Shown: positions 6,161-53,042, counted from the stretch's first letter. The stretch is DNA of 64,000 bases from Thermoanaerobaculia bacterium (GCA_038245905.1 JBBRRY010000017.1:14608-78607), one strand, 5' to 3'. The notes: a model not told the origin generated them from the sequence alone. Numbers and translations are program-made.

Positions 6161-6186
6161 CCCCTCTTACCTTCTAAGAATTCTTC
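6161..6186 (+). repeat. copy of the dispersed ~26-bp motif (intergenic, rpsK-rpsD)
   Basis: CCCCTCTTACCTTCTAAGAATTCTTC. Confidence 0.75.
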
Positions 6187-6279
6187 GGAATTCTTCGTCC
6201 GTAAACCGAGCTCTCGATTCCGGGCCGGGAAGAAGGACGCAATGAAATGACGGAATCGGACGAGAGGTCGTGATTTCCC

Positions 6280-6906
6280 GTGGCTCGTTATCGTGAATCG
6301 GTCTGCCGGCTCTGCCGGCGCGAAGCAATGAAGCTGTTCCTCAAGGGGGACCGCTGTTTCACCAACAAGTGCGCGATCGAGCGCCGCAATTTTCCGCCCG
6401 GCCAGCACGGCAAGCGTCGCTCCAAGATCCTCGGCTACGGCATCCAGCTTCGTGAGAAGCAGAAGCTGAAGAGGTTCTACGGGGTGCTCGAGGGCCAGTT
6501 CCGGCTCACGTTCGAGGCCGCCGAGCGCATGCGCGGCGTCACGGGCGAGAACCTCCTCTCGCTCCTGGAACGCCGTCTCGACAACGTCGTTCACCGCCTC
6601 GGCTTCTCCGGCTCGCGCGCTCAGGCGCGCCAGCTCGTCCGTCACGGGCATGTCCGCGTGAACGGCAAGAAGGTGAACGTGCCGAGCTATGTCGTCGGCA
6701 CGGGCGCCCTCGTCTCCGTCAAGGAGAAGAGCAAGGCGAATCCGCTCATCGCCGGCGCCGTCGAAACGGCCAAGGGCCGCGGAATCCCGGCGTGGCTCGA
6801 GCTGAACGCGGCGGAATTCCAGGGCAAGGTCGTCAAGCTTCCGAAGCGCGAAGACGTCGCGCTGCAGGTCAACGAAAAGCTCATCGTCGAGCTGTACTCG
6901 AAGTAG
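6280..6906 (+). CDS. rpsD: 30S ribosomal protein S4 (Cys-containing, zinc-type N-terminus)
   Basis: [16 protein letters not shown]...C, QLREKQK and LERRLDNVV motifs. Confidence 0.98.
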
Positions 6907-6969
6907 TTCCGTCACGAACACTCCCGCGCGCGCCGCTCAGCGGATCAGTCGCAGGGACAGGAGAAACAG

Positions 6970-7941: not shown

Positions 7942-7948
7942 GGAATCC

Positions 7949-8587: not shown

Positions 8588-8621
8588 GTAGACAGGAAAG
8601 ATAGAGAAGAGACTCGGATAC

Positions 8622-8647
8622 GGATTTTCTTAAAAGGTTAAGAGGGG
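8622..8647 (-). repeat. copy of the dispersed motif (after rplQ, abutting the terminator)
   Basis: Reverse complement reads CCCCTCTTAACCTTTTAAGAAAATCC. Confidence 0.65.
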
Positions 8648-8671
8648 CCCCGGTTCGCCGGGGCCTTTTTT
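8646..8671 (+). terminator. Rho-independent terminator of the ribosomal protein operon
   Basis: Stem GGCCCCGG-TTCG-CCGGGGCC followed by TTTTTT. Confidence 0.9.
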
Positions 8672-8685
8672 CATGAGGGGGGCTT

Positions 8686-9078: not shown

Positions 9079-9085
9079 CGAGCCG

Positions 9086-9801: not shown

Positions 9802-9832
9802 CCCCGGATTGTAGAGGGAGGTCGCCGGCGGG

Positions 9833-13386: not shown

Positions 13387-14868
13387 GTGACTCTTCGCCT
13401 TTACAACACCATGAGCCGCTCGCTCGAGGAGTTTCGTCCCGTCTACCCGGGAAAGATCGGCCTCTACACATGCGGACCCACCGTCTACAACCGGGTGCAC
13501 ATCGGAAACCTCAGGACATTCGTCTGGGAAGACGTGATGTGCCGCGTCTTTCGCGCCCTCGGCTACGAGACGACCCAGGTGATGAACCTCACGGACATCG
13601 ACGACAAGACGATCCGGGGCGCGTTGGCCGCCGGGCTGCCGCTGCGCGCGTTCACGGACCTTCACATCGCGACGTTCTTCGAGGACCTGAAGACGCTCGG
13701 CGTCGAGCCGGCGGCGCTCTATCCGCGCGCCACGGAGCACATCCCCGAGATGGTCACGATCGTCCAGAAGCTCGCCGCCCGTGGGCACACGTACGAGAGC
13801 GACGGATCGGTCTGGTTCCGGATCTCGACGTTCCCGGGCTACGGAAGTCTCTCTAAGATCGACCTCACGGCCGTGAAGCGCGGCGCGCGCGTGGCCGACG
13901 ACGAGTACGAGAAGGAAGATGTGCGCGACTTCGCGGTATGGAAGGGAGCGAAGGAGGGCGAGCCCGAGTCCGCGACGTGGGCCACGGCGCTTGGCCGCGG
14001 GCGGCCCGGCTGGCACCTCGAGTGCAGCGCCATGGCGATGAAGTACCTCGGCGAAACGCTCGACATCCACACGGGCGCCGTCGACAACATCTTCCCGCAT
14101 CACGAGAACGAGATCGCGCAGAGCGAAGGCGCGACCGGGAAACCGTTCGTCCATTACTGGCTCCACGCCGAGCACCTCCTCGTGGACGGCGAGAAGATGT
14201 CGAAGAGCAAGGGGAACTTCTACACGCTTCCCGACCTCCTCGAGAGGGGCTTCTCTCCGCGCGCGATCCGCTACCTCCTCATCTCGGTCCCGTATCGGAT
14301 GAAGCTCAACTTCACCTTCGACGGCCTGAAGGCCGCGACCTCCGCGGTCGAGCGGCTGGAGTCGCTCGACCTGCGGCTCAGGGAAAGAGAGAAAGAGAAG
14401 AACAGTTCTTTGAAAGGGGAAGAGGGGGGGAGAGAGGGATTCGAGGGGCGACTGGCGGAGGCGCGGCGTGCGGTCTTTGCCGCCCTCGAGGACGACCTCA
14501 ACACGGCCGGCGCTCTCGGGGCGCTGTTCTCGTTCGTCAAGGCGACCAACGTCGATCTCGAGGCGGGCCATCTGTCGGCCTCCGACGCAACCGCGGCGCG
14601 CGGTCTTCTCCATGAAGTCGCCGGGAACGTCTTCGGAGTCATTGAAAAGACCGCAGGCGACGATGCGCCCTCTTCACCTTCTCAGAAATCTTCATCCGAA
14701 TCCCCCGAATCCGATGATGCGTGGATCCTGGAGCGCATCGAGGCCCGAAAGGGGGCTAGAAAGGCCCGGGATTTCAAGGCCGCCGACGCGATCCGCGACG
14801 AGCTCCTGGGCAAGGGAGTCATCCTCGAAGACACGCCCCAGGGCGTTCGCTGGAAGAGGAAGCCTTGA
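13387..14868 (+). CDS. cysS: cysteine--tRNA ligase
   Basis: LYNT, YTCGPTVY, HIGN, GRPGWHLECSAM, FPHHENEIAQS and KMSKS motifs; GTG at 13387 chosen as start. Confidence 0.96.
   Translation: MTLRLYNTMSRSLEEFRPVYPGKIGLYTCGPTVYNRVHIGNLRTFVWEDVMCRVFRALGYETTQVMNLTDIDDKTIRGALAAGLPLRAFTDLHIATFFEDLKTLGVEPAALYPRATEHIPEMVTIVQKLAARGHTYESDGSVWFRISTFPGYGSLSKIDLTAVKRGARVADDEYEKEDVRDFAVWKGAKEGEPESATWATALGRGRPGWHLECSAMAMKYLGETLDIHTGAVDNIFPHHENEIAQSEGATGKPFVHYWLHAEHLLVDGEKMSKSKGNFYTLPDLLERGFSPRAIRYLLISVPYRMKLNFTFDGLKAATSAVERLESLDLRLREREKEKNSSLKGEEGGREGFEGRLAEARRAVFAALEDDLNTAGALGALFSFVKATNVDLEAGHLSASDATAARGLLHEVAGNVFGVIEKTAGDDAPSSPSQKSSSESPESDDAWILERIEARKGARKARDFKAADAIRDELLGKGVILEDTPQGVRWKRKP
14401..14693. repeat. 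inverted pair of the dispersed motif inside cysS
   Basis: Minus copy 14401-14427 (CCCCTCTTCCCCTTTCAAAGAACTGTT) and plus copy 14668-14693 (CCCTCTTCACCTTCTCAGAAATCTTC). Confidence 0.7.
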
Positions 14869-14945: not shown

Positions 14946-15046
14946 GTCGGCTGCGCCTCGCGCCGCCGGCCCATAGAGGTTCGGAGGCACGCGGGTTTTC
15001 CAACAAGGTCACCCCAACCCCTCCGGATCGGAGGGGTTTTCGTTTT
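14946..15046 (+). promoter_or_regulatory. transcription attenuator (alternative hairpins plus terminator)
   Basis: Terminator AACCCCTCCG-GAT-CGGAGGGGTT-TTCGTTTT (15016-15046); antiterminator arms CGGAG (14982-14986) and GGGTT (14993-14997) are complementary to 15016-15025. Confidence 0.82.
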
Positions 15047-16607
15047 GGTCCTCACCGCGGAGAAAACACTTCTCGTCGCGTCCCTCGCACCGGCTTCTAA
15101 CGCCGAGGCTCTGGGGGGGCGCGCGGCTCTCGCCGACCTGCCTCCGTCGACGGCTGTCGAGCTGCGCCTGGATGCGATGACCGAGGCGCCTGCGTTCGGC
15201 GCGCTGCGCGCGTGCTTCGAAGGCAGAACGCTCATCGCAACCGTTCGATCCAAAGCCGAGGGCGGCGGGTTCCGGGGGAGCGAGGAGGAAGAGCGGGATT
15301 TCCTAGAAGGTGCCCTCTCTGCGGGCTTCGATCTCGCAGACGTTGAATTTCGCCGCGACCTTGGTACTCGCTTCGCCGGAATACCTCCTTCTAAGAAGAT
15401 TTCTTCTCTCCACGACCCCGAAGGGGTACCAGCCGACCTCGACAGCGTCGTCTCGAGGATGCTCGCTTCCCCCTCGCGCTTCGTGAAAGTCGCGGCGACG
15501 GCAAACGATTCCGGCGACGCCCGCCGCCTTCTCGAGCTTCAGGCCGCGAACCCAGGGGGGCGCCTCACCGTATTCGGCATGGGCGAGGCCGGGATCGCCA
15601 CGCGCGTCCTCTCGCCCTATCTCGGCGCGGCGCTCGCGTACGGGGCGCTCGTCCCCGGGCGCGCCACGGCACCCGGCCAGCTTCTTGCGCGCGACCTCAA
15701 CGAGATCTACGGCGTCGGCTGCGCGCGGAGCGTCTCGCGGCTCTTCGGGATCCTGGGCGGCGTCGTCTCGCACTCCCTCTCTCCCGCTCTCCACAACGCG
15801 AATTTCGAGGCTCTCGAAGAGGACGCGCTCTACGTCCCGTTTGCGATGCGGATGCTCGGGAGGGAGCTCGAGCCCCTCGTCGCCTCCCTCGACGCGCTCG
15901 GCCTTCCTCTCGGGGGCGTCTCGGTGACGATCCCGTTCAAGGAAGAGGCCGCGCTCCTTTCGGGCGCGGCCGAGGGCGGCGAGAGGGCGGTCAACACGCT
16001 CCTGAGGTCGAGCGCCCCGGGCCTGCCGCTCCAGTGGCGCGCGGAAAACACCGACCGTGCGGCATTCGAGGCCGTGATTGAAGATGCTTCCGAGAGAGGG
16101 AGAACCGAGACGAGCGCGAATGCGCGGGTGGCGATCGTCCTCGGGGCTGGTGGTACGGCACGGGTTGCCGTGGATGTTCTCCGAAAAAGGGGATTCGGAG
16201 TCTTTCTGGTGAACCGAGGCGAGGAGCGTGGCGAGGCGCTTGCGGCTGCCACGGGCGCCCATTACCTTTCTAATAAATCCTCGGCGCCGTGGCCCGAGGC
16301 TGGAGTCATCGTCAACGCGACGGCCCTCGGGCTTCTCCCGGGGGATCCTCTTCCCTGCGAGCAAAATATTCTCCGCCCCGGGATGCTCGTGATCGACGCG
16401 CCGTATCGCGCCGGCGGAACAGAGCTCGTCCGGGCGGCGCGCGCAGCGGGCGCGCGCGTCGTAGACGGCCAGACACTGCTCCTGCTTCAGGCCGCGGGCC
16501 AGGCAACGCTCTTCACCGGGCGGCAGACGAGCCCGCGGGATCTGCTCTCGCGTCTCGCGCCGCGCCTTCGCTCCCTGTTTTCGTCCTTCGAGGAGTTTTC
16601 TCCTTGA
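15045..16607 (+). CDS. bifunctional type I 3-dehydroquinate dehydratase / shikimate dehydrogenase (AroD-AroE fusion)
   Basis: N-half has VELRLD, ATVRSKAEGG, SLHD, MGEAG and APGQ; C-half has HSLSPALHN, SVTIPFK, AVNT, NTD, LGAGGTAR and VNAT; TTG start uncertain. Confidence 0.88.
   Translation: MVLTAEKTLLVASLAPASNAEALGGRAALADLPPSTAVELRLDAMTEAPAFGALRACFEGRTLIATVRSKAEGGGFRGSEEEERDFLEGALSAGFDLADVEFRRDLGTRFAGIPPSKKISSLHDPEGVPADLDSVVSRMLASPSRFVKVAATANDSGDARRLLELQAANPGGRLTVFGMGEAGIATRVLSPYLGAALAYGALVPGRATAPGQLLARDLNEIYGVGCARSVSRLFGILGGVVSHSLSPALHNANFEALEEDALYVPFAMRMLGRELEPLVASLDALGLPLGGVSVTIPFKEEAALLSGAAEGGERAVNTLLRSSAPGLPLQWRAENTDRAAFEAVIEDASERGRTETSANARVAIVLGAGGTARVAVDVLRKRGFGVFLVNRGEERGEALAAATGAHYLSNKSSAPWPEAGVIVNATALGLLPGDPLPCEQNILRPGMLVIDAPYRAGGTELVRAARAAGARVVDGQTLLLLQAAGQATLFTGRQTSPRDLLSRLAPRLRSLFSSFEEFSP
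15295..15406. repeat. inverted pair of the dispersed motif inside the aroD domain
   Basis: Minus CACCTTCTAGGAAATCCC (15295-15312); plus CCTCCTTCTAAGAAGATTTCTTC (15384-15406). Confidence 0.65.
16258..16282 (+). repeat. copy of the dispersed motif inside the aroE domain
   Basis: CCCATTACCTTTCTAATAAATCCTC. Confidence 0.6.
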
Positions 16608-18235
16608 AGATCGAGCGGCCCGACCCGAACCTGCCGCGAGGCGTGCAGGCATTTCTCTTCGACGCGGCCGAGCGCCGCCGGAAGGCGGAAGACTCGGTCG
16701 TGCGACGGCTTCAGGAGGCCGGTCTGCGTGAGGTGATTCTCCCCGTCCTGGATTTCGCGGCCCCCTATGCCGGCGTGACGGCCGAGGGAGACGATCGCCT
16801 TTATCGGTTCCTCGACCGGCAGGGGAATACTCTGGCGCTTCGGGCGGACTTCACGCCGATGGCGGCGCGCGTCGTGGCGCCACGGCTCAGCGCGCTCTCC
16901 GGAGCCGTCTCCCTCTTCTACCGCGGAGACGTCGTGCGCGACGAGGAGACTGGTGTCGGGCGCCGGCGCGAGTTCGCGCAGGTCGGCGCAGAGCGTTACG
17001 GCGATGGCCGCCCGGAGGCCGACGGCGAAATGCTCGCGCTGGCTCTCTCCTGCCTCGGAGATCTTCCGGCCGAGCGCCTCAGGCTCACCCTCGGCTGGTC
17101 GGGCCTCCTGGAACGCCTGCTCGCCATACTCGCCCCGGGACTCGAAGTGAACGGCGCGTCCGAACTCGCCGTTGCCTTGTCGGCCGCGCGCGCGCGGCAC
17201 ATCACGGAGCTGGAGACGCGGCTTTCGACCGCGGGCGCCGCGCCGGCCGTCGCTGCGGAAGCCGCCCGGGCCCTCCTCGTCGGCTTCGACCCCTCTTCCG
17301 ATCTCTTCCACTCGACTGCCCTTGCGGGCGCGGCCGCGGAGCTCGCGCGCGCGGTCGCAATTGCGAGGGCCGCCCGGCCCGGTCTCTCGGTCGTCGTCGA
17401 CCTTGCCGACACTCCCCAGGCCCCCTATTACACGGGGCTCACGTTCAGCGTGGACGCCGCGAGCGGGGGCGGCACGATTGCCGGAGGCGGACGGTACGAC
17501 GGCCTCCTCGGGCGTTTCGGCACGGCGGCGCCCGCGCTCGGCTTCTGTATCGGCCTCGAGGCTCTCGGTGCTGCCGCCGATGTAACCGAGAGAGACGCGC
17601 GCCCTCTCCGAATCGCGGTCGGGAAGGGCCGGCTCCTGCCGCAGGCGCTCGAGGCGCTCGACGCCGGAGGCGCCTCGTTCGGCGAGCCGGACGGCCGGCG
17701 CCTTCTCGTGCTTTCCTCGGACGGCGCGTTCGAGCTGCTTCTCCTCAAGGACGACGACGTCCCGACCTACGTGGCTCACGGTGGCGCCGACCTCGGGATC
17801 GTGGGGAGCGACCGCGTCCTCGAGAGCGGCGAGGACGTGACCTCCCCCGTGGAGCTTCCGTTCGGCGCCTGCCGCCTCTCCCTCATCGGGCGGGCGGGGG
17901 AGCCGTTCCGCCCGAACGGCGCGCCCGTTCGCGTGGGAACGAAGTACCGCCGCCTCGCGGCCCGCTATTTCGATGAGCGGAAGATCGCCCATGAGATCGT
18001 CCCGCTCGCGGGTTCGGTCGAGCTCGCTGCCGCGCTCGGGCTCACGGACGTCGTCGTGGACCTCATCGAATCTGGCTCCACGATGGCCGCGAACGGTCTC
18101 GCCGAGATCGAGACCATCCTCACGAGCCGCGCGACCCTCGTCCTCGGGCGTTCCGCGCTCATCGCCCGCCGGGCCGAGATCGCGGAGTTCGTCCAGCGCC
18201 TCAGGGCTCATGCGGGCAAGGCGCTGACTTCATGA
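16604..18235 (+). CDS. hisZ-hisG: HisZ-HisG(short) fusion: ATP phosphoribosyltransferase regulatory plus catalytic subunit
   Basis: HisZ motifs LALRADFT, REFAQVGAE, YYTGLTF and GGGRYDGLLGRFG are in frame with HisG motifs RIAVGKGRL, DVPTYVAHGGADLGIVG, TKY, GSVELA and DLIESGST; TTG overlaps the aroE stop. Confidence 0.9.
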   Translation: MKIERPDPNLPRGVQAFLFDAAERRRKAEDSVVRRLQEAGLREVILPVLDFAAPYAGVTAEGDDRLYRFLDRQGNTLALRADFTPMAARVVAPRLSALSGAVSLFYRGDVVRDEETGVGRRREFAQVGAERYGDGRPEADGEMLALALSCLGDLPAERLRLTLGWSGLLERLLAILAPGLEVNGASELAVALSAARARHITELETRLSTAGAAPAVAAEAARALLVGFDPSSDLFHSTALAGAAAELARAVAIARAARPGLSVVVDLADTPQAPYYTGLTFSVDAASGGGTIAGGGRYDGLLGRFGTAAPALGFCIGLEALGAAADVTERDARPLRIAVGKGRLLPQALEALDAGGASFGEPDGRRLLVLSSDGAFELLLLKDDDVPTYVAHGGADLGIVGSDRVLESGEDVTSPVELPFGACRLSLIGRAGEPFRPNGAPVRVGTKYRRLAARYFDERKIAHEIVPLAGSVELAAALGLTDVVVDLIESGSTMAANGLAEIETILTSRATLVLGRSALIARRAEIAEFVQRLRAHAGKALTS

Positions 18236-19542
18236 TGAAGATCGTCGACGCGGATACGCTTGCGGGCAAGAAGGAGCTGGAGCGGTTGCTAAAGAGCCGC
18301 CGGGGAGCCGCTCCTGACTTCGCGACGCTGAAGCAGGTCCTGCCGATCGTGGAGGATGTTCTGCGAAGAGGGGAGCCTGCGCTCCGGAAATACGTGAAGT
18401 GCTTCGACCCGTTGCGCGGCGCCCCTTCTTACCCTTCTAAGAAGCTCTTGATCACTCCCCGACGTGAGGAGTCTTCTCGGGTGGATCCGGCGTTTCAGGC
18501 GGCGTTTGTCTTCGCCCGCAAGCGCATCGAGGCTTATCACCGCAAGCAGCTCTCGTCCGTCTCGCCGGGTTTCTCCTTCAAGGACTCTCTCGGCGTCTCC
18601 TTCGTGGAGAGGCCCACGCCGTTCGATTCGGTGGGCGTCTATGTGCCCGGGGGCCGCGCCTTCTATCCGTCCTCGCTTCTCATGGGGGTCGTGCCCGCGC
18701 GCGTCGCGGGCGTCAGGCGAGTCGTCGTCGCGACGCCGCGCGGGGCGTGGGCGTCGAGCCCCGAGCTCCGGTGGGCGGCGGCCGAGCTGGGAGTCGACGA
18801 GGTGCTCCTCGCGGGAGGGGCCCACGGTATCGCCGGCCTCGTGTCCGTCGCGGGCGTCGCGAAGATCGTCGGCCCCGGGAACCGGTTCGTCGCGGCGGCG
18901 AAGCACCTCGTCTCGGGCCTCGTGGCGGTGGACATGCCGGCAGGGCCTTCGGAAGTCGCAATCCTCGCGTCGGCCGATGCGGACCCGGCGCTCGTGGCGG
19001 CGGATCTTCTCGCGCAAGCGGAGCACGATCCCGACGCAAAGTGCTTGCTGTTTACGAGCTCGAGAAGGCTGGCGGACGCCGTTCGATGCGCGGCGCTCTC
19101 GCAGATGGATGCCTTCGAAGAGGATTCTTCTTTGATGGTGATGAGAGCGGCCTTGCGCCGCGGTGGGCGGATCTTTCTATTCAAAGAAATCTCCCGCGCC
19201 GCGTCGGCCTGCGCTGCCGTGTTCGCGGAGCACGTTCAGGTCATGGGCCGGTCTGTCGAGCGCTCGGCGGGTTCTCTCTTTCCCGCTGCCGGAACCTTGT
19301 TCATTGGCCCGTCGACGCCGACCGCGCTCGGGGACTACGTCCTCGGCCCGAATCACGTACTGCCCACAGGCGGTGCCGCGCGCAGCTTCTCGGGTCTCTC
19401 GGTGCGCGACTTCCTGCGCTGGGGGCGATCGGTCTCGGCCCCCGTGAAGGCGGCCCGCCGCCTCGCGCCCGCGGCAGCGGTCCTGGCGCGATTCGAAGGT
19501 CTCGTCGCCCACGCGAGCGCGCTCGACCGGAGAGTCCGGTGA
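18232..19542 (+). CDS. hisD: histidinol dehydrogenase
   Basis: VGVYVPGG, KIVGPGN, DMPAGPSE, DLLAQAEHD and GDYVLGPNHVLPT motifs. Confidence 0.95.
   Translation: MMKIVDADTLAGKKELERLLKSRRGAAPDFATLKQVLPIVEDVLRRGEPALRKYVKCFDPLRGAPSYPSKKLLITPRREESSRVDPAFQAAFVFARKRIEAYHRKQLSSVSPGFSFKDSLGVSFVERPTPFDSVGVYVPGGRAFYPSSLLMGVVPARVAGVRRVVVATPRGAWASSPELRWAAAELGVDEVLLAGGAHGIAGLVSVAGVAKIVGPGNRFVAAAKHLVSGLVAVDMPAGPSEVAILASADADPALVAADLLAQAEHDPDAKCLLFTSSRRLADAVRCAALSQMDAFEEDSSLMVMRAALRRGGRIFLFKEISRAASACAAVFAEHVQVMGRSVERSAGSLFPAAGTLFIGPSTPTALGDYVLGPNHVLPTGGAARSFSGLSVRDFLRWGRSVSAPVKAARRLAPAAAVLARFEGLVAHASALDRRVR
18422..18449 (+). repeat. copy of the dispersed motif inside hisD
   Basis: CCCCTTCTTACCCTTCTAAGAAGCTCTT. 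Confidence 0.7.
19120..19195. repeat. degenerate inverted pair of the dispersed motif inside hisD
   Basis: Minus CTCTCATCACCATCAAAGAAGAATCCTC (19120-19147); plus TCTTTCTATTCAAAGAAATCTCCC (19172-19195). Confidence 0.55.
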
Positions 19543-20606
19543 CCGGCCGGCCCATCCCGGTCCGCGAGGAGATCCGGTCGCTCAGGGCCTATCGCCTCGA
19601 GTCCGAGGACGCCCCCCCTCTCCGAGCGAAGCTGGACTTCAACGAGTCGCCGTTCGACGTGCCCGAGGAAATCCGCGCGGAGGTCCTCGCGCGCCTCGCG
19701 GCGAAGAGATGGGGCCGCTACCCCGAGTTCGGCGCGCCGCGTCTGAAGAGGGCGGTCGCCGAGGCGATTGGCCGGCGGCCCGAAGAGATCGTGGTCGGCA
19801 ACGGGTCTGGTGAGGTCCTTCTCGCGGCGGTCTCCGTCTTCGCGGGGGGCGGCTCTCTCGTCCTTCCGACGCCCACGTTCTCGCTCTACGGACAGATCGC
19901 GGCGATCGCGGCGGCCCGCGTCGTGGACGTGCCGCGCACGGGGCCGGATTTCGAGCTCGTCGAGGACGCATTTCTCGCCGCGGTGTCCCGGCCGCACGCC
20001 GTTCCTCTCGTCTGCTCGCCGAACAACCCGACGGGCGGCGTCGTACGGCGGGAATTCCTGGAGAGGCTGCTCACGGCCGCGCCCGTCGTGCTCCTCGATC
20101 AGGCCTACGTGGATTTCGCGGGGCCCGGCGACGACGGCCTCTCGCTCCTCGATGCCTATCCGAACCTCGTCGTCTTCCGGACGCTCTCGAAGGCGTACGC
20201 GGCCGCGGGCTTCCGGATCGGGTACGCAGTCGCGCCGCCGGAGCTCGCGCGGGAGATCGAGAAGGCCGTCCTGCCGTTCAGCGTCGACCTCGCGGCCGAG
20301 GAGTTGGCGGTCGCCGTCCTCGGGCGTCCAGAGGTTGCGCGGGCCCACCTGGGCAAGATCGTGGCCGAGAGGTTGCGCGTGGCCGCGGCGCTCACGGCGG
20401 CCGGCTGCCTCGTGGCTTCGTCGTCCGCAAATTTTCTCTTCGTGCGTCCGCCGGGCGGCCAGGCGGAGCCGGTCCGCCGGGCGCTTCTCGACAGGGGAAT
20501 CCTCGTGCGCGAAATGACCGCGGCGGCGCCCGGGCGCCTCCGTGTTTCGATCGGATCCCGTGAGGAGAACGATCTTTTCCTCGAAGCGCTTCGGGAGGTG
20601 TTATGA
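19539..20606 (+). CDS. hisC: histidinol-phosphate aminotransferase
   Basis: KLDFNESP, GNGSGE, CSPNNPTG, DQAY and RTLSKAYAAAGFRIGY motifs; GTG overlaps the hisD stop. Confidence 0.93.
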   Translation: MTGRPIPVREEIRSLRAYRLESEDAPPLRAKLDFNESPFDVPEEIRAEVLARLAAKRWGRYPEFGAPRLKRAVAEAIGRRPEEIVVGNGSGEVLLAAVSVFAGGGSLVLPTPTFSLYGQIAAIAAARVVDVPRTGPDFELVEDAFLAAVSRPHAVPLVCSPNNPTGGVVRREFLERLLTAAPVVLLDQAYVDFAGPGDDGLSLLDAYPNLVVFRTLSKAYAAAGFRIGYAVAPPELAREIEKAVLPFSVDLAAEELAVAVLGRPEVARAHLGKIVAERLRVAAALTAAGCLVASSSANFLFVRPPGGQAEPVRRALLDRGILVREMTAAAPGRLRVSIGSREENDLFLEALREVL

Positions 20607-24037: not shown

Positions 24038-25410
24038 GGAATCTCCACCGCCTCGTCGTGGTCGAGAGGCCGGCGGACCTTACGACGCCCGTTGCGCTCA
24101 TGAAGGGCCTTCTTGCCGGCGAGGGGCCGTGCTTCCTTCTCGAATCGGTCGAGGGGGGCGACCGCGTGGCGCGGTGGTCCTTCCTCGGGGCGTCGCCCTC
24201 GGGAGAGATCTCCGGCCAGGATACGGATCCGTTCGCCGCCCTCCGCGCGCTGCCTCGCGGCGAAATGGCGGCAGGCGGGGACGACCTCCCTCCCTTCACG
24301 GGCGGAGCCGTCGGTTACGCGGGCTACGACGCCGTGAGGCGCCTCGAACGCCTCCCCGAAACGAACCCGGACCCGATCGGGCTGCCGGACGCGTGGTTCG
24401 GGATCTTCGACGCGGTCATCGCGTTCGACCATGTGCGGCACCGCCTTCTCTTCGTGACGCATGCCGAAGAGGGCCGGGAGGAAGAGGCGCGCGCTCGTCT
24501 GCACGCGCTCGAGGCGCGCACCCTCACCCGAGGTGGTGAAACGCGCACAGAGACTCTCTCTTCTCTTACCTTCAAAGAATCTTCTCCTCGTTCCTCCTAC
24601 ATCGCGGCGGTCGAGCGCGCGAAGGAGCACATTCGGGCGGGCGACGTGTTTCAGGTCGTCCTCTCGCGCCGCTGGTCCGCACCCTTCGACGGCGACGCCT
24701 TCGCTGTCTACCGCGCGCTCCGGTCCATCAGCCCGTCGCCGTACCAGTACTTCCTGAGGACGCCGCACGGCGCGATCTTCGGAGCCTCGCCCGAGCGACT
24801 CGTGCGCGTCGCGGCGGCCCTCGGCGGCGCGGCCGTGGAGACGATTCCTCTCGCCGGCACCCGCGCGCGCGGCGCGACGCGCGAAGAGGACCTCGCCCTC
24901 GAGAAGGAGCTCCTCGCGGACCCGAAGGAGCGCGCGGAGCACGTGATGCTCGTGGATCTCGGGAGAAACGACCTCGGCCGAGTCGCGAAGGCCGGGAGCG
25001 TGCGCGTGGAAGATTTTTTCCGCGTCGAGCGCTATTCCCACGTGATGCACATCGCCTCGCGCGTGACCGGCGTTCTCGCCGAGGGGAAGGACGCCGTCGA
25101 CGCTCTCGTGGCGACGTTTCCGGCCGGGACGCTTACGGGAGCGCCGAAAATACGCGCGATGGAGATCATCGAGGACCTCGAGCCGGTGCGGCGCGGCGCC
25201 TACGGCGGCACCGTGGGCTACCTCGACTTCGCCGGAAACCTCGACGTGGCTATCGCGATCCGCACGGCGGTCGTCGCGAACGGCATTCTCCACGTGCAGG
25301 CCGGCGCCGGCATCGTCGCCGACTCCGACCCCGAGGCCGAAGCGACCGAGTGCGAGAACAAGGCCCGTGCTCTCATGGGCGCCGTTGCGAAGGCGGGGAC
25401 GTACCGATGA
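24034..25410 (+). CDS. trpE: anthranilate synthase component I
   Basis: [45 protein letters not shown] and [10 protein letters not shown] motifs. Confidence 0.95.
24561..24586 (+). repeat. copy of the dispersed motif inside trpE
   Basis: TTCTCTTACCTTCAAAGAATCTTCTC. Confidence 0.7.
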
Positions 25411-27013: not shown

Positions 27014-27028
27014 GAGGAGTAAGAGGGA

Positions 27029-27271
27029 GAGAAATTTCTTAGAAAGGGTAAGAGGAAGAGGGGATGGGCGGATCGATTCTTGGGGAGATTCTCGCCGCCA
27101 AGCGGCGCCGGATCGCCCGTGGGGAGTTCACGGCCGAGACGGGCGCGCGCGCACGCACCAGCGGGGGTAGGGGCGCGCAGCCCGCGGCGCGGCCCGACGG
27201 CGCGCGCTTCGCCGCGGCCCTTAGGTCTCACCCTTCTCTTTCTTCCTCCTCCATTTCTAAGCAAGTCTTTC
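27029..27271. repeat. inverted pair of the dispersed motif: trpD-trpC intergenic plus trpC 5' region
   Basis: Minus CCTCTTACCCTTTCTAAGAAATTTCTC (27029-27055); plus CCTCCTCCATTTCTAAGCAAGTCTTTC (27245-27271). Confidence 0.7.
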
Positions 27272-41204: not shown

Positions 41205-42102
41205 GACCCTCGGCGAGACGGACGGGCTCCGGCAGGCCGAGGGCGGCCCGCCCTTTCGCGACGTCGAGGACGCTCCGGCGCTGCTCTCCAGGCTTGGCGG
41301 CCTCGTGCGGGGCCTTCGCGGAGGAGCCGCAGGACCGCACGACTTCGTCCCAGAGGGCGTTTACGTTCGTCTCGACGCCGGTCCCGACGTTGTAAACGCC
41401 CGCGAGGCGCTTCGAGGCCGCCGCGCGGTTTGCGGAGACGACGTCCCCGACGTAGACGAAGTCGCGGGAGTTGAGGCCGTCGCCGTAGATGACGCAGGGC
41501 TTTCCTTGGAGGAGGCGCGCCATCCAGATCCCGACGACGCCGGCCTCGCCCCGCCCGTCCTGGCGCGGGCCGTAGACGTTCGCGTAGCGGAGGGCCGTCA
41601 CGAGAAGCGGCGTCCCGTGCGCGAGGCCGAAGAGATACTTCTCGCCCGCGAGCTTCGCGACGCCATAGGGCGACACGGGGTTCGTCGCGTGGCTCTCGTC
41701 GGCGGCGAATCCCTCGGGGTCGCCGTAGATCGCGCCGCCGCTGGAGGCGAAGATGATCTGCGTGACACCTGCCTCGATCGCAGCCTTGGCGATGCGGATC
41801 GTCCCGAGGACGTTGACCTCCGCGTCGAAGACGGGATCCTCGACCGATTTGCGCACGTCGATCTGCGCGGCATGGTGGACGATCGTGTCGATCTTCTCGG
41901 CTTCGAGGAGAGCCGCGAAATCGAAGTTCCGGATATCGCCTTCGACGAAACGGGCCGGGCCGGGGAGACGCGATGCCTGGCCCGTCGAGAGATCGTCGAG
42001 GATGACGACCCGCTTGCCTTCGGCCAGGAAGGCGTCGGCGAGATGGGAGCCGATGAAACCGGCTCCGCCGGTGACGAGGACGGAACGCGTCTCGGGCATC
42101 AT
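41158..42102 (-). CDS. NAD-dependent epimerase/dehydratase (UDP-glucose 4-epimerase-like)
   Basis: VTGGAGFIGS, YGVAK (YxxxK), RYANVYGPRQ and RDFVYVGDV motifs. Confidence 0.9.
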   Translation of the reverse strand: MMPETRSVLVTGGAGFIGSHLADAFLAEGKRVVILDDLSTGQASRLPGPARFVEGDIRNFDFAALLEAEKIDTIVHHAAQIDVRKSVEDPVFDAEVNVLGTIRIAKAAIEAGVTQIIFASSGGAIYGDPEGFAADESHATNPVSPYGVAKLAGEKYLFGLAHGTPLLVTALRYANVYGPRQDGRGEAGVVGIWMARLLQGKPCVIYGDGLNSRDFVYVGDVVSANRAAASKRLAGVYNVGTGVETNVNALWDEVVRSCGSSAKAPHEAAKPGEQRRSVLDVAKGRAALGLPEPVRLAEGLRRTAAWFREASSRA

Positions 42103-42118
42103 GGGTGTGGAGGATAGC

Positions 42119-42736
42119 GTGCCCTCTCGCCGACCGCTCCCCGCCACCTTTTTCCGCCGCGACACCGAGGTCATCGCGCGTGATCTCCTGGGCTGCCGGC
42201 TCACGCGGCGGCTGCCCGACGGCACCACGCGATCCGTGATCCTGGTCGAAACGGAGGCCTATCTCGGCGTGAAGGACCGCGCGGCGCACACGTGGAACGG
42301 CCGTCGTACCGCCCGCGTCGAGCCGATGTGGGGGGCGGGCGGCCACGCGTACGTCTATTTCGTCTACGGGATGCACTTCTGCATGAACGTCGTAGCGGGC
42401 GAAGAAGGGATTCCGGAGGCGGTCTTGCTGAGAGCGGGGATTCCGGAGGGAGAAGAGAAGGTTTCTTTGAAGGTGAATAGGGGAGGGGAGGCGTCCGGGC
42501 CCGCGAAGCTGTGCGCCTATCTGGGCGTGACCACCGCGCTGTCCGGCGCCTCGCTCTCCGGCCCCGAGCTGGTCCTCTCGCGCGGGCCGCGTCGGCGGTT
42601 CTCGATCGTCGCCGGGCCGCGCGTGGGCGTGGACTACGCGGGGGAGGCCGCGGCGTGGCCGCTGCGCTTCGCGATGGCCGGGTGCAAGGCCGTGACGAAG
42701 CCCAAGGGGCTCCGTCCTTTCCGTGTCATCGCATGA
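42119..42736 (+). CDS. mpg: DNA-3-methyladenine glycosylase (MPG/AAG family)
   Basis: ARDLLG, VETEAY, YVYFVYGMHFCMNVV, AVLLRA, GPAKLC and RVGV motifs; GGAGG before the GTG. Confidence 0.9.
   Translation: MPSRRPLPATFFRRDTEVIARDLLGCRLTRRLPDGTTRSVILVETEAYLGVKDRAAHTWNGRRTARVEPMWGAGGHAYVYFVYGMHFCMNVVAGEEGIPEAVLLRAGIPEGEEKVSLKVNRGGEASGPAKLCAYLGVTTALSGASLSGPELVLSRGPRRRFSIVAGPRVGVDYAGEAAAWPLRFAMAGCKAVTKPKGLRPFRVIA
42455..42483 (-). repeat. copy of the dispersed motif inside mpg
   Basis: Reverse complement reads CCCCTATTCACCTTCAAAGAAACCTTCTC. Confidence 0.68.
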
Positions 42737-47912: not shown

Positions 47913-47962
47913 GGTTCCTCCAGCGGCCGAAGAGTATCGGCTCCCGGTGCTAATGTCTCCTC

Positions 47963-48220: not shown

Positions 48221-49506
48221 TGATTTCGGAGCTGCCCGGCCACGTGGGCGAGACCGTCCGCCTCAAGGGGTGGCTCTACAACTGGCGCAAGGGCGGGAAG
48301 ATCTGGTTCCTCGTGCTGCGCGACGGCAGCGGATATCTCCAATGCGTCGTCTCGAAGGCGGATGTCGCGGAGGCCGTCTGGGAGGCCGCGACGAGCGCGA
48401 CCCAGGAGTCCACGCTCGAAGTGACCGGCGTCGTGAAGTCAGACGCGCGCTCGGTAGGCGGCGTCGAGCTGGGCGTCGCGGACGTAAAGATCCTCGACCT
48501 CTGCCACGACTGGCCGATCACGCCGAAGGAGCATGGCGTCGACTTCCTCATGTCGCAGCGCCACCTCTGGCTGCGCTCGTCGAGGCAGGTCGCCGTCCTC
48601 AAGGTTCGGAGCGAAGTCGAGAGCGCGATCCACGACTTTTTCTATTCGCGCGGTTTCACGCGCCTCGATTCGCCCATCCTGACGCCGGCGGCGTGCGAGG
48701 GCACGTCGAACCTGTTCGAAACGCAGTACACGGAGGACGAGAAGGCCTATCTTTCGCAATCCGGCCAGCTCTACCTCGAGCCCGCGGCCGCCGCGCTCGG
48801 GAAGGTCTACTGCTTCGGGCCGACGTTCCGGGCCGAGAAGTCCAAGACGCGCCGGCACCTGCGCGAGTTCTGGATGGTCGAGCCCGAGGTCGCTTTTCTC
48901 GAGATCGAAGGGCTGATGGACCTCGCCGAGGAGTTCGTCAAGGAGCTCACGGCCCGCGTTCTCGACCGCCGGAAGGAAGATCTCAAGCGGCTCGAGCGCG
49001 ACGTCGCGAAGCTCGAGGTCGTCACGGCGAAGAAGTTTCCGCGTATCTCCTATCGCGAGGCGGTCGAGATCCTCCAGAAGAAGGGCTTCCCGGTGAAGTT
49101 CGGTGACGACCTCGGCGGAGACGAAGAGACCGCGCTCACCGAGGGTTTCGACACACCGGTCATGGTCACGCGCTACCCGACGTCCATCAAGGCGTTCTAC
49201 ATGCAGCCCGATCCGGAGGATCCCGAGGTCGTGCTCGGGCTCGACATGCTCGCGCCCGAGGGCTACGGCGAGATCATCGGCGGGTCGCAGCGCATCCATG
49301 ACCACGATCTCCTGCTCTCGCGCATCCAGCAGCACAACCTGCCGCTCGAGGCCTTCCAGTGGTACCTCGACGTCCGGAAGTACGGCACCTTCCCGCACTC
49401 GGGCTTCGGCATGGGCCTCGAGCGCTTCGTCGCCTGGATGTGCGGCGTCCCGCACCTCCGTGAGTGCATCCCGTACCCGCGGATGCTGTACCGGATCTAC
49501 CCGTAG
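48217..49506 (+). CDS. asnS: asparagine--tRNA ligase
   Basis: [54 protein letters not shown] and [11 protein letters not shown] motifs. Confidence 0.95.
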
Positions 49507-49528
49507 TCGGGCGAGGACCGGCAGGACC

Positions 49529-51577
49529 TCAGGCGCGGTCGAGAGCCGCGCGGACCCGGCCCGCGACCTGCGCGGGTGCGAAGGGCTTTTCGAGGAAGTC
49601 CGTCCCCGGCTCGAGGACGCCGTGGCGCCCGATCGCGTCGTCCGTGTAGCCGGACATGAACAGAACGCGCGCCTCCGGGTATCGGGCGGTGATGCGTCCG
49701 GCCAGCTCCCGGCCGTTCATCCCTGGCATTACGACGTCGGTGAGGAGGAGATGCACGGGCCCTCGGTGCGCGCGAGCCACGTCGAGCGCCTCCTCGCCGG
49801 AGGCGGCGTCGAGCACGGCATATCCGTTCGCCTCGAGCGCCGTGCGCACGAGCTTCCGAACGCTAGCCTCGTCCTCTACGACGAGGACCGTCTCGCCTCC
49901 CCGCCGTGCCATGGCCGGATGCGGAACCGGCTCGTCCGGAGACTCCGCGACGGCCGGAAGCAGGATCTCGAACGTCGTGCCGCTGCCCACGACGCTGTCG
50001 GCCCAGATGAAGCCGTCGCTCTGCTTGACTATTCCATACGTCGTCGCGAGGCCGAGGCCGGTTCCCTTGCCGCGCTCCTTCGTCGTGAAAAACGGCTCGA
50101 AAAGGCGGGCGTGCACCTCGCACGTCATCCCAGCGCCCGTGTCGGAGACCGAGAGACTGGCGTAGAGGCCGGGGCGCAGTCCGGGCCTGATGGCGGCGGA
50201 CGCCTCGTCCATCGTCTTGACGGCGGTCGCGAGGGTCAGCGTGCCGCCGCCCGGCATCGCGTCGCGGGCATTCACCGCGAGGTTCATGAGCACCTGCTCG
50301 AGCTGCCCGCGGTCGGCTCGCACGCAGGGGACGGTCGGGCCGAGCCGGAGGACGAGCCGGACGTCCTCGCCGATCACGCGTCCGAGCAGGCTCTGTGCCT
50401 CGCGCGCGACCTCGTTCAGGTCGAGGACGGCGGGCCGGAGCACCTGCTTGCGACTGAAGGCAAGGAGCTGCTTCGTGAGCGCCGCGGCTCGATCCGCGGC
50501 TCGCCGGATCTCGTTCAGATGCGCCCGGGACTCGTCCTCGACGAGGCTTTCGTGGAGCAGATCGGCGTATCCGATGATCGCGGTCAGCAGGTTGTTGAAG
50601 TCGTGGGCGACCCCGCCGGCGAGCCGTCCGATTGCATCCATTTTCTGGGACTGCAGGAGCTGCTCTTTCAGGATCTCCTTCTCCTCCTCCGAAGCCCGGT
50701 GCAACGCGTCGGCGGCGAGGCGGCCGTCGTCCGAGCGGCGGAGGGCCGCGGCCGTCCAGAGCACGAGGCCCGTCGCGACGGCGCTGACGGCAAACGCGAA
50801 AAGCGCCGTGCCGAGCTCAGGATCCCAGGCGCGGCGGCGCTGCTCGGCGATCTGAATCCAGCCAAGGACGGGGGGGAGCACGAATGCGGGCGGGATGAGC
50901 CGGCGCGCGAGGGCCGCACCGAGGTCGGTCCGGACCCAGAAGGAGGCGGGCGGGACGTCCGCCCGCAGCGCGAGGATGCCCGCCGAGAGCCCAAGGAGTC
51001 CGATACTCGTCTGCGGCGCGATCACGTTGAACGGGCCGAATGTCAGAAACTCATCCGCGCCGAGGGCCAGGCCGACAAGCGACTCCATCGCGATAAGCGT
51101 GGCCCCGAACGCGACGAGCGGAGTGAGCCAGCGGCTCGCCCGGCCGCGCAAGTGGAGCCCGGCGAGTGAGACCGCGAGCAGGAAAAGGGCCCCAGCGGTC
51201 ACCGGCGACATTCGGCCGGGCGCGAGCGTCTGGGGCGCGGGAGAGAGGGCGTCGCGCACGAGGAGCTCGTCGATGCCGAAGCTCCGGCCGACGACGTCCT
51301 GCGCGACCGTCGCGAGAGCGAGCAGCGCGACACCGGTGCCGAGGACCATGGTCATCCTCGACCGCCCGTCGGACCGCGCGGCGAGGGCGAGCCCGGCTCC
51401 GAGCAAGGCGAGCGCGACCGCGGTATTCGCCTTCATGGGAAGGGCCGCGTCGATCGGGGCGCTCAGCGAGGAGGCGCCCAGCAGCCAGCCGGCGAGCGTC
51501 AGGACGCCGAGGCCGGCGGAGCCGGCGGCGACCACGGTCGAGAACGTCGAGAAGGGTGAGAGGCTCCGCTCTCCCAT
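49529..51577 (-). CDS. membrane hybrid sensor histidine kinase (CckA-like, with receiver)
   Basis: Multiple TM segments; AHDFNNLL H-box, NLAVNARDAM, FEPFFTTK and GTGLGL; C-terminal receiver. Confidence 0.92.
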   Translation of the reverse strand: MGERSLSPFSTFSTVVAAGSAGLGVLTLAGWLLGASSLSAPIDAALPMKANTAVALALLGAGLALAARSDGRSRMTMVLGTGVALLALATVAQDVVGRSFGIDELLVRDALSPAPQTLAPGRMSPVTAGALFLLAVSLAGLHLRGRASRWLTPLVAFGATLIAMESLVGLALGADEFLTFGPFNVIAPQTSIGLLGLSAGILALRADVPPASFWVRTDLGAALARRLIPPAFVLPPVLGWIQIAEQRRRAWDPELGTALFAFAVSAVATGLVLWTAAALRRSDDGRLAADALHRASEEEKEILKEQLLQSQKMDAIGRLAGGVAHDFNNLLTAIIGYADLLHESLVEDESRAHLNEIRRAADRAAALTKQLLAFSRKQVLRPAVLDLNEVAREAQSLLGRVIGEDVRLVLRLGPTVPCVRADRGQLEQVLMNLAVNARDAMPGGGTLTLATAVKTMDEASAAIRPGLRPGLYASLSVSDTGAGMTCEVHARLFEPFFTTKERGKGTGLGLATTYGIVKQSDGFIWADSVVGSGTTFEILLPAVAESPDEPVPHPAMARRGGETVLVVEDEASVRKLVRTALEANGYAVLDAASGEEALDVARAHRGPVHLLLTDVVMPGMNGRELAGRITARYPEARVLFMSGYTDDAIGRHGVLEPGTDFLEKPFAPAQVAGRVRAALDRA

Positions 51578-51662
51578 TGGAGGCAGTGTACCGCCGGCGC
51601 GGTACAATAAGACTTGTTAGCGCCTGCCGCTCAAGCGCCGACCGGGTTCCGGCTCGCCTTCC

Positions 51663-53042
51663 ATGAAACAACCAGCTTCTCTCCCGTCCGTCGGCATCGT
51701 GTCGCTCGGATGCCCCAAGAACCTCGTCGACACCGAGGTGATGCTCGGCCATCTCCAGCGCGAGGGCATGACGCTGGCCGACCCCGAGAAATCGCGCGTC
51801 GTCATCGTGAACACCTGCGGCTTCATCGACGCGGCCAAGGAGGAGTCCGTCGGCGCAATCCTCCGCGAGGTGGCGCGCAAGGAAGCCGGGGAGATCGACC
51901 GCGTCGTCGTCGCCGGCTGCATGGTGCAGAAGTACGGCCGGGAGCTCGCGGCCGAGATCCCCGAGGTGGACCACTTCATCGGCCTCGACGAGCTGGAGAA
52001 GGCGCCCGCGGCGGCCCTCGGCCTCCCGTCGCTCCCGCGTTTCAGCGACAAACCCCTCGCGACCCGGCTCTACGACGACCTCTCTCCGCGCGTCCTCACA
52101 CACCGTAAGGGCTACGCCTATCTGAAGGTCGCCGAGGGCTGCAACAACCCATGCACGTTCTGCACGATTCCGCAGATGCGCGGCCTCATGCGCTCGCGCA
52201 CGATCGCGTCGCTCGTGAAAGAAGCGCAGAGCCTCGAGGCGCAGGGCGTCCGGGAGCTCGTCCTGATCTCGCAGGACACGACCCGCTACGGCGAGGACCT
52301 CGGACTCGGCCGGACGGGCCTCGCCGATCTCGTGAAGGCGCTTCTTGCCGAGACGGGCTTCCCCTGGGTGCGCTTCCTGTACGCCTACCCGAAGACGCTC
52401 CACCGGGGCGTCTTCCAGCTCATGGCGAGAGAGCCGCGTTTCGTCCCGTACGTCGACATGCCGCTCCAGCATGTCTCCCGGAAGATCCTCACGAAGATGA
52501 AGAGGGGAGGCGACGGCGCGAGCTATCTGAAGCAATTCGAAGAAATCCGAAAACTCGTCCCCGAGATTTCCCTCCGCTCGACCTTCATCGTGGGCTTCCC
52601 GGGCGAAGAGGAGAAGGATTTCATAGAAGTGGAAGAGTTTCTCAAGGCCGTCCGCTTCGACAACGCGGGAGTCTTCACGTACTCCCCCGAACCGGGATCC
52701 GGTGCGGAATCGCTCGGGGACCCTCTTCCACTCGAAGAAAAATCTTCACGCCGCGACCGTTTGATGGAGGTCCAGCAGAAGATCTCTCTATCGAAGAACC
52801 GCGCGAAGCGCGGCAAGATCTTCGACGCCCTGCTCGAAGGCCCCAGCGAGGAAACGGAGATGCTCCTCGAGGCGCGCCTCGCCGGGCAGGCCCCCGAGAT
52901 CGACGGGCGCGTGCTGATCAACGACGTCCCCTCCGGCTGGGCGCCGCGCGTCGGCGAGATCGTGCGTGTGAAGATCACCGAGGCGCACGCCTACGACCTC
53001 GTCGGGCGGGTCGTAGCGCCCGTCGCTTCCACCGTCGCTTAA
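51663..53042 (+). CDS. rimO: ribosomal protein S12 methylthiotransferase
   Basis: SLGCPKNLVD, NTCGFID.AKEES, CNNPCTFC radical-SAM motif and APEIDG TRAM domain. Confidence 0.95.
   Translation: MKQPASLPSVGIVSLGCPKNLVDTEVMLGHLQREGMTLADPEKSRVVIVNTCGFIDAAKEESVGAILREVARKEAGEIDRVVVAGCMVQKYGRELAAEIPEVDHFIGLDELEKAPAAALGLPSLPRFSDKPLATRLYDDLSPRVLTHRKGYAYLKVAEGCNNPCTFCTIPQMRGLMRSRTIASLVKEAQSLEAQGVRELVLISQDTTRYGEDLGLGRTGLADLVKALLAETGFPWVRFLYAYPKTLHRGVFQLMAREPRFVPYVDMPLQHVSRKILTKMKRGGDGASYLKQFEEIRKLVPEISLRSTFIVGFPGEEEKDFIEVEEFLKAVRFDNAGVFTYSPEPGSGAESLGDPLPLEEKSSRRDRLMEVQQKISLSKNRAKRGKIFDALLEGPSEETEMLLEARLAGQAPEIDGRVLINDVPSGWAPRVGEIVRVKITEAHAYDLVGRVVAPVASTVA
52611..52747. repeat. inverted pair of the dispersed motif inside rimO
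   Basis: Minus CTCTTCCACTTCTATGAAATCCTTCTC (52611-52637); plus CCCTCTTCCACTCGAAGAAAAATCTTC (52721-52747). Confidence 0.65.

Follow-up and report, generated by a model that had tools for sequence, protein, structure and literature searches.

Among the described families of short bacterial repeats, repetitive extragenic palindromic (REP) sequences and their BIME and REPIN arrangements occur as hundreds of short units, often as inverted doublets, that last at orthologous places; they are strictly extragenic, each unit is a hairpin, the spacing within doublets is narrow, and they come with a RAYT gene. The cyanobacterial HIP1 is a symmetric 8-mer used singly, an abundant and lineage-specific word overlaid on coding sequence by substitution, with an unsettled function. 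DNA uptake sequences (PMC2817400) number hundreds to thousands of copies, of which 65%, 49% and 34.5% lie in open reading frames (ORFs) in three species, and occupy poorly conserved positions where they accumulate in place; the same text argues that they are driven wherever mutation and protein tolerance allow. PMC2397512 describes them as over-represented between genes, where close inverted pairs, at most 21 nt apart, act as terminators. Transposable elements of the miniature inverted-repeat class (MITEs) that are read in frame are known in Rickettsia and Coxiella (PMC10969869). Here we describe an asymmetric motif of about 30 bp that is dispersed through a 64,000-nt stretch of DNA (JBBRRY010000017.1:14608-78607, hereafter the window) and through the rest of its source, the metagenome-assembled genome (MAG) of Thermoanaerobaculia bacterium GCA_038245905.1. 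With about 700 copies, this signal fits no described repeat family and points to a putative DNA reader. Our tentative proposal is that it may be a previously undescribed chromosome-wide signal, for which a dedicated protein would recognise two asymmetric 30-bp arms head-to-head, written by substitution around native stretches of about 150 housekeeping genes and between genes, and retained for as long as the genus has existed.

The assembly (G000) contains 3,797,265 bases in 113 contigs at 67.8% GC and is 96% complete, with no 16S rRNA gene among the contigs; a HisD search gave MAGs titled Thermoanaerobaculia or Acidobacteriota as the closest named relatives, and the host genus is one of the uncultured Acidobacteria of soil and sediment. 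Genes were called with a codon log-odds model trained on 922 long ORFs, giving 3,116 genes and 92.6% coding; calls within the window were verified by Pfam, and those elsewhere come from the codon model alone, so some sites counted as intragenic may truly be intergenic. An earlier note on the window had listed 20 positions for the motif, and we found it at every one of them in the orientation stated. The sites were scored with a matrix 27 bp wide, for which the exact-core copies of this genome served as input; 19 of these 20 sites reach at least 14 bits and the site at 15295 reaches 8.1 bits; at 8 bits or more the window holds 29 sites, including nine weak ones (8-13 bits) absent from that list. 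The note had also proposed a comparison with codon-shuffled sequence, and when codons were permuted inside each called gene the enrichment was plain: 733 sites at 14 bits or more in the real genome against 16 in the shuffled one (46-fold). With a cut-off of 18 bits the two counts are 547 and 1, and with one of 10 bits they are 1101 and 150. The genome has 73 occurrences of the exact core 9-mer and 76 of its complement, compared with the roughly 2.4 expected from base composition by our own arithmetic. Merging of overlaps leaves 700 sites.

The profile of 268 aligned exact-core copies is asymmetric, with a C-rich inner flank, a near-invariant C two bases before the core, the core TTCWAAGAA followed by A, and on the outer side a G-depleted pyrimidine tract that fades over about 30 nt. 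We call one motif copy an arm, laid out as an inner flank (CCCTCTTMCC), the core, ATC and an outer (TCY)n tract; it spans about 27-45 bp, and its core is palindromic only over 3+3 bases. Rfam gave no match at gathering score anywhere in the 64-kb window. A full-text literature search for the core 9-mer returned eukaryotic STAT sites, primers and similar, with no bacterial repeat among the matches listed, and no description of the motif was listed in searches on Thermoanaerobaculia repeats, in-frame palindromic elements, and uptake sequences in connection with Acidobacteria or molecular drive.

The sites behave as DNA rather than as protein, as had been proposed from the window: both orientations and each of the three frames are used, and where the core would contain a stop codon it is repaired in a frame-dependent way. 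The two strands carry 346 (+) and 354 (-) sites, with 268 sense in genes, 251 antisense, and 181 that are intergenic or lie at the edge of a contig. Among these last, the T form is the most frequent core (55 of 181). In the two frame classes that would bring TAA or TAG into frame (116 and 68 sites), it is not one of the top six cores, and A or G forms are found instead. Because the T core is replaced in exactly the stop-giving frames, the copies are translated, with selection removing only stops; in the window, one orientation yields for example LTFKESS, and the opposite one EDFLEG and NSSLKGEEG. A protein motif or codon bias is ruled out as the cause by the three frames, both orientations and the 46-fold excess over codon-shuffled sequence. 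It is highly probable that the motif is a signal at the level of DNA which evolves in situ, and that it is not a protein motif or an element of the cut-and-paste kind.

Copies were said to lie both within unrelated genes and between genes, and both statements stand. Pfam places those of the window in cysS, aroD-aroE, hisD, hisA, trpE, trpCF, a methylpurine glycosylase gene and a MiaB/RimO-type methylthiotransferase gene, with others between rpsK and rpsD, after rplQ, and between trpD and trpCF. Across the genome, 519 of the 700 sites (74%) are within called genes, in about 3.5 Mb of coding sequence, and the other 26% fall in the 7.4% of the genome not called coding, a density between genes about five times higher; by gap type, tandem gaps (147 kb) contain 116 sites, convergent gaps (25 kb) 20 and divergent gaps (86 kb) 36. 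At least one site is found in 272 of the 3,116 genes. A link to amino-acid biosynthesis, suggested by hot spots at his, trp and aro genes in the window and lys and dap genes on contig C5, was dropped when the 20 most loaded genes proved functionally mixed: 17 have Pfam hits (LysA, two class I tRNA synthetases, AlaRS, DnaE, Ser/Thr kinases, alanine racemase and others) and three have none. Grouped into 489 loci, about one per 7.8 kb, the sites are moderately clumped, with a variance-to-mean ratio of 1.76 and 132 of 336 10-kb bins empty.

Most of the copies are arranged as facing pairs. The single-site view taken in the earlier note was right that the sites are real and incomplete as to the unit, since most copies belong to a head-to-head pair, by which we mean two arms in (-)(+) order with their inner flanks facing. 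Among adjacent couples within 300 bp, 208 are (-)(+), compared with 15 (+)(-), 30 (+)(+) and 34 (-)(-), a polarity of about 14:1. There are 211 (-)(+) pairs within 320 bp, 152 of them inside a single called gene, and about 60-75% of arms are paired with the C-rich inner flanks facing; among the leftover singles, 93 of 266 that could be tested have a partner of at least 8 bits on the expected side, compared with 18 on the wrong side. Spacing ranges from 28 to 320 bp, mostly 70-140, and shows no helical phasing (power 3.2 at 10.5 bp). Partner-specific pairing was seen neither in sequence likeness (23.29 of 55 positions for real partners, 23.28 +/- 0.22 for permuted ones) nor in duplex energy (-32.4 real versus -31.5 kcal/mol permuted, p = 0.33), and since real partners are no more alike than permuted ones, each arm fits the consensus independently. 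The loops are GC-rich and unrelated to each other in the 70 shortest of the 211 pairs, read by eye, and those in hisA, hisD and the methylthiotransferase gene are the gene's own conserved residues.

A pair of this kind reads alike from either strand, purine arm first and pyrimidine arm second, so that every sense and antisense transcript would fold a long hairpin, fixed in sequence, which might be cut or bound (for example by RNase III) or might end untranslated or antisense transcripts; the polarity is that required by a two-way terminator. At -65 kcal/mol the hisA pair does fold more stably than shuffled sequence (-47.9, z = -4.2), and arm duplexes, with an average of -32 kcal/mol, are more stable than those of an arm with random genomic sequence (-24.5). 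Between genes the purine arm peaks 20-80 nt downstream of stop codons, and 33 of 350 purine-sense arms lie 0-40 nt upstream of a start, where the inner flank resembles a ribosome-binding site. A role at the RNA level is nevertheless quite unlikely in our judgement. Real partners pair no better than permuted ones, sense transcripts have no advantage over antisense ones (-34.1 versus -33.3 kcal/mol, p = 0.15), and across 15 species two-sided change is seen at one of 13 predicted pairs, the others being invariant or changed on one side. For a terminator in particular, folding of the 36 nt on the inner side of each arm is no more stable than that of random segments (intergenic, -8.72 versus -9.08; genic, -9.87 versus -9.67), and a stem by itself needs no single fixed 9-mer; the lack of an Rfam match also counts against this explanation.

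Inverted repeats around a short intragenic segment would also be expected if the facing arms bounded invertons flipped by one master recombinase, and intragenic invertons have been reported in other bacteria. This is extremely improbable here. When the enclosed segment is flipped in silico, the gene stays open in 44% of the 152 intragenic pairs, below the 57% seen for 3006 random segments of the same length; the enclosed segments are conserved parts of essential enzymes; and among the best-supported joints of four DNA runs, assessed on contigs only and blind to rare forms, no strand-changing joint between arms was found.

Focusing on how individual arms came about, comparison of orthologous genes shows that arms arise in place by clustered substitutions and small indels, occasionally together with an insertion, as in hisD. 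The place of both hisA arms is taken by ordinary codons in two other genera of the family, with a length difference of a few codons at most; solved HisA structures align across both arms with gaps of 1 and 3 residues, and the loop between them is the conserved Gly-Ser strand-loop. Solved CysS structures likewise align through the arms, with gaps of 0-9 residues. In hisZG, the arm of one clade differs from the same-length sequence of other species by about five substitutions in 15 nt (by eye) without any indel, and related species show intermediate forms. At residue 63 of hisD, all but one of 17 genus loci have the (+) arm, the exception (L021) having neither arm nor insertion; an insertion of 30-45 residues with a facing arm just upstream is found in 9 of 16 other genus loci (one degenerate), one clade has an alternative partner about 80 nt upstream over native codons, and two species have both partners. 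Since these alternatives lie at different places, the partner arose more than once beside the same arm. In one genus member (L044:3001-4415), the hisD frame ceases to align past residue ~170, which may be due to a frameshift, to breakage of the gene or to misassembly of a long-read contig.

Once formed, arms persist close to the consensus, and in 17 genus loci around hisD the sites occupy matching orthologous places. The hisD pair is kept in all 17 genus loci, rare codons included, and the hisA pair in 15 of 17, where of the other two loci one ends before the place and one has no site of at least 10 bits. Across 15 species the arm cores in hisA are almost invariant and the loop is variable, and in hisD the top codon share at columns of invariant amino acid is 0.90 for six arm columns versus 0.73 for 198 others (p = 0.035, a small sample). 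In the sister genus, the hisA pair is found at the same place, intact in one genome (G049) and degenerate in another (G050, locus L106, with no exact 14-mer copy), which looks like decay after loss of the maintaining process. The pyrimidine outer flank behaves like a microsatellite: the number of extra Ser codons encoded by the (TCY)n run outside the (+) arm of hisA (window 22216-22240, with the equivalent place in L005-L019) varies among species between 0 and about 24, and a related strain has 45 extra letters at window 22222 within the run.

These comparisons bear on the possibility that the pairs are old in-frame MITEs, like Rickettsia palindromic elements or REPINs, with arms that are terminal repeats kept alike by conversion or by an unassembled transposase. 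Like the Rickettsia elements (PMC10969869), our pairs are palindromic units of about 100-150 bp in unrelated housekeeping genes and are read in frame; there, however, a whole conserved element encoding a conserved peptide was inserted, and here the arms alone are shared, the middle is native and no target duplication is found. A selfish element would account for the overall size (about 80-400 bp), the single fixed arrangement of inverted arms (208 versus 15 couples), the five-fold density between genes, reading frames open through every copy, the one hisD insertion polymorphism, and the indels that adjoin arms between close strains. We still rate it unlikely. Filled and empty sites point both ways: in hisD some species carry the insertion with one arm, and in hisA and hisZG the arms replace native bases with no indel or a tiny one. 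The origin of arms by substitution counts against an element, as do loops that are unrelated or native gene sequence. Target-site duplications (2-8 bp, at offsets of 0-50 nt outside the cores of 211 pairs) did not exceed those of permuted partners except at 8 bp (2 versus 1), and the position matrix has no sharp outer end. No parent element emerged from the 16 wider (-)(+) pairs (320-4000 bp), which span ordinary called genes or none, although repeats may be missing from a 113-contig MAG assembly, a caveat that applies to the insertion-sequence results below as well. Three of these wider pairs, read by eye, hold Nudix-like, ComEA-like and pseudouridine-synthase-like frames, none of which resembles a transposase; the ComEA-like frame, a small helix-hairpin-helix frame as judged by eye, lies at G000:C12:35355-35802 between (-) and (+) arms 439 bp apart. 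PF01797 (Y1/RAYT transposase) has no match in G000, and the same search matches 6 of 14 control genomes. Arms are not enriched at contig ends (12 observed, 12.5 expected). Relative to REP and REPIN sequences, the signal also differs in being 74% intragenic and widely spaced, with an arm whose palindrome covers 3+3 bases and no Y1 transposase; relative to HIP1, it differs in being about 30 bp long, asymmetric and paired.

The sole multi-copy insertion sequence (IS) of the genome also has tips unlike the motif and is present in few genus genomes. It is 1,330 bp long, with 20-bp inverted tips and a transposase of DUF772 and DDE_Tnp_1 type, and at least 14 contig ends of G000 (two groups of seven) stop within it, breaking the assembly. 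Its end region is found in G000 and two other genus genomes, with partial or marginal matches in two more, among 29 searched. The 3' non-coding tail of the IS contains one good arm of 20-25 bits in two species. As a general cause, the IS was rejected both as source and as reader of the motif, because every genus member has the signal and few have the IS, which holds one arm only.

Another account dispenses with both transposition and a reader: about 700 pyrimidine-rich patches could convert each other by short-patch ectopic recombination or template switching and recruit look-alikes, with neither function nor protein. The clustered multi-base changes at new arms agree with this, as do the slippage-prone (TCY)n flanks that vary between species and strains and the absence of a function-linked class among the 20 most loaded genes. 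Arms of about 27-45 bp are at or below the usual length for recombination, however, and neither the 14:1 polarity of the pairs nor the repeated appearance of facing partners at different places beside one hisD arm is explained; we consider concerted evolution without a reader very unlikely.

The signal was predicted to be lineage-specific, and its range agrees: it is confined to one genus, with traces in a sister genus. A 14-mer of the motif occurs in all 28 genus genomes (9-94 copies) and in 5 of 8 sister-genus genomes (2-5 copies; G046-G049 and G051, with no exact copy in G044, G045 and G050). It is in none of 26 genomes that represent eight further genera of this family and in none of 16 from two other families; the reversed 14-mer, used as a control, is absent from every genome searched. 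Site density per Mb is 184 in G000, 106 and 221 in two further members of the genus and 35 in the sister genus (from samples of about 0.4 Mb except for G000), with the same consensus and pair polarity in all sampled genus members and in the sister genus. Viral contigs gave at least 115 stretches with one copy of the 14-mer each and none with several, which we read as chance hits in a very large collection.

In its evolutionary behaviour the signal most resembles the uptake signal sequences (USS) of Pasteurellaceae and the DNA uptake sequences (DUS) of Neisseriaceae. The common features (PMC2817400; PMC2397512) are hundreds of asymmetric, lineage-specific copies, equal on both strands, in several coding frames and at tolerant positions, over-represented between genes, arising in place, common to close relatives and absent from distant ones, with some inverted pairs. 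There are also differences: here pairs are the rule, with one polarity, at 28-320 bp and mostly (152 of 211) intragenic, whereas in DUS pairs the distance does not exceed 21 nt and the pair serves as a terminator. The loci are also about 6-7 times sparser, and the phylum is Acidobacteriota. The possible roles named in the earlier note were organisation, uptake and recombination or regulation; among these an uptake or recombination tag best matches the evolutionary behaviour, and replication orientation, looked for as had been suggested, is unsupported. A replication-oriented signal of the Chi or KOPS type was rejected, as neither GC skew nor gene strand is linked to the 278 unpaired sites (counts of 63-76 in each cell of the table).

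From these sequence comparisons, we view the motif as a candidate two-arm DNA self tag of uptake or recombination type, accumulating by molecular drive and read by a putative dedicated protein, an account that is possible but well short of probable. A sequence-specific protein would read the arms as duplex DNA and would engage two of them head-to-head, the intervening DNA being folded back or looped; the two-arm reader is proposed to explain the 14:1 polar pairing. Spread and persistence would be due to molecular drive rather than transposition, with near-consensus variants fixed preferentially, and the drive would most likely consist of preferential uptake and/or recombination of tagged DNA, as for USS and DUS, but with a two-arm tag. 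Protein-level selection would merely filter where arms can sit, and as three quarters of the sites are in genes despite changed residues, rare codons and poly-Ser runs, the drive appears to be limited by mutation and protein tolerance. ComEC, DprA and two secretin genes are present in G000; they also occur in most control genomes and are not competence-specific, so they agree with the uptake idea without favouring it.

Several points weigh against this proposal. No reader protein of the arms was identified. Known uptake sequences work singly, and in this genome the wide intragenic pair is the rule; the loci are both sparser and, by the variance ratio and empty bins given above, more clumped than USS or DUS. 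The 30-45-residue insertion that accompanies an arm at hisD residue 63 means that growth is not by substitution alone. The arms in hisA can pair as RNA or single-stranded DNA, with the fold energy quoted above, making a role at the level of structure possible, and reader-less short-patch ectopic gene conversion among about 700 arms would give much the same pattern.

The arms might alternatively be bound with high affinity by a nucleoid protein peculiar to the lineage, or by an enzyme with two-fold symmetry (a topoisomerase, for example), that bridges them and anchors small loops, with the host selecting for chromosome organisation. Constant head-to-head polarity, the independent fit of every arm to the consensus, the stable density within the genus (106-221 per Mb), the number and spacing of loci (about 489, one per 7.8 kb) and long orthologous conservation are all consistent with such an architectural role. 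So is the 20-25-bit arm in the non-coding tail of the resident IS in two species, which resembles host-factor sites at IS ends. We regard an architectural role as unlikely: more than 2,000 intergenic gaps are on offer, yet 74% of the sites are in genes, at the cost of residue changes, rare codons and poly-Ser; the spacing is broad and without helical phasing; 132 of the 336 10-kb bins are empty; and the sister genus lets its sites decay. If it were nonetheless correct, the pairs would represent a sequence-defined loop anchor sited in coding DNA.

The candidate self tag, if its uptake or recombination reader is real, would to our knowledge be the first uptake-type self tag outside Proteobacteria and the first that uses two sites, and gene exchange in uncultured soil and sediment Acidobacteria, a phylum for which no such system has been described, would become open to study. 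The fixed polarity of the pairs is a sharp and testable clue to the geometry of the putative reader. Independent of the reader, this is a DNA-level signal that overrides coding at scale, with residue changes in conserved enzymes (among them HisA, HisD, CysS, DnaE and tRNA synthetases) and tolerance of poly-Ser runs that reach two dozen codons. For annotation, the AT-richer patches, rare codons and low-complexity insertions in these genes should be taken neither as errors nor as foreign DNA, and for metagenomics the motif is a clean marker of the genus.

The individual sites of the window and the IS copies are collected in Table 1. In the left part of the window Pfam identifies rpsK, rpsD and rplQ, and from 13.4 to 30 kb a same-strand overlapping biosynthetic run of cysS, aroD-aroE, hisZ-hisG, hisD, hisC, hisB, hisA, hisF-hisIE, trpE, trpD, trpCF and trpB; within 15045-28575, the fused genes aroD-aroE, hisZ-hisG, hisF-hisI-hisE and trpC-trpF stand on one strand with stops overlapping starts.

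Table 1. Motif arms and pairs in the window, in window coordinates, and copies of the multi-copy insertion sequence
Feature	Position	Strand	Score (bits)	Context
Single arm	6160..6186	+	32.8	Intergenic, 6 nt past rpsK (S11) stop, upstream of rpsD (S4)
Single arm	8621..8647	-	28.7	Intergenic after rplQ (L17), convergent with response-regulator gene
Arm in cysS	14400..14426	-	27.4	Residue ~338, variable linker 0-9 residues longer than in solved CysS structures
Arm in cysS	14667..14693	+	31.3	Residue ~427, linker before C-terminal domain, 6-9-residue insertion relative to solved CysS structures
Weak arm in aroD-aroE	15294..15320	-	8.1	Left partner of 15377 arm
Arm in aroD-aroE	15377..15403	+	23.2	Right partner of 15294 arm
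Arm in aroD-aroE	16256..16282	+	29.1	Residue ~404; at orthologous place in 17/17 scanned loci
Arm in hisD	18423..18449	+	32.2	Residue ~63
Pair in hisD	19122-19148 (-) + 19168-19194 (+)	-/+	21.6 + 26.1	Native residues between
Pair in hisA	22119-22145 (-) + 22189-22215 (+)	-/+	29.8 + 32.9	Encloses native conserved strand-loop segment
Single arm in trpE	24559..24585	+	31.2	Between two Pfam domains; A core variant where T would give stop
Pair at trpD/trpCF	27030-27056 (-) + 27243-27269 (+)	-/+	35.7 + 22.1	First arm intergenic; second at trpCF residue ~60
Pair in trpF half of trpCF	28043-28069 (-) + 28211-28237 (+)	-/+	19.0 + 25.3	
Single arm in methylpurine-DNA glycosylase gene (42053-42736, +)	42457..42483	-	35.2	Within Pfam domain
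Pair in MiaB/RimO-type methylthiotransferase gene	52614-52640 (-) + 52719-52745 (+)	-/+	21.4 + 17.4	End of radical-SAM domain, before TRAM
IS copy	L293:409-1738			G024
IS copy	L285:564-800			G000 contig end
IS copy	L290:1-191			G000 contig end
IS copy	L287 (G000:C17:1-800), ~1-145			Left end of window's contig

Outside the subject of the motif, ARAGORN predicts an 80-nt tRNA-Glu(CTC) at window 49498-49577 (-), where Rfam gives no tRNA, whether at gathering score or with E allowed up to 1; this may be a false call or an atypical gene. Upon inspection by eye, a perfect GC-rich inverted repeat at window 8648-8675 was found to adjoin the inner flank of the arm at 8621, and with it this arm could form a terminator of the convergent response-regulator gene, the arm being its U-rich tail, which is not a general rule. 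At window 27030-27066, the purine-rich inner flank of an arm stands immediately before the trpCF start, and at G000:C1:64520-64540 the called start codon of a Nudix-like gene falls within an arm; arms can thus supply translation signals for these two genes.

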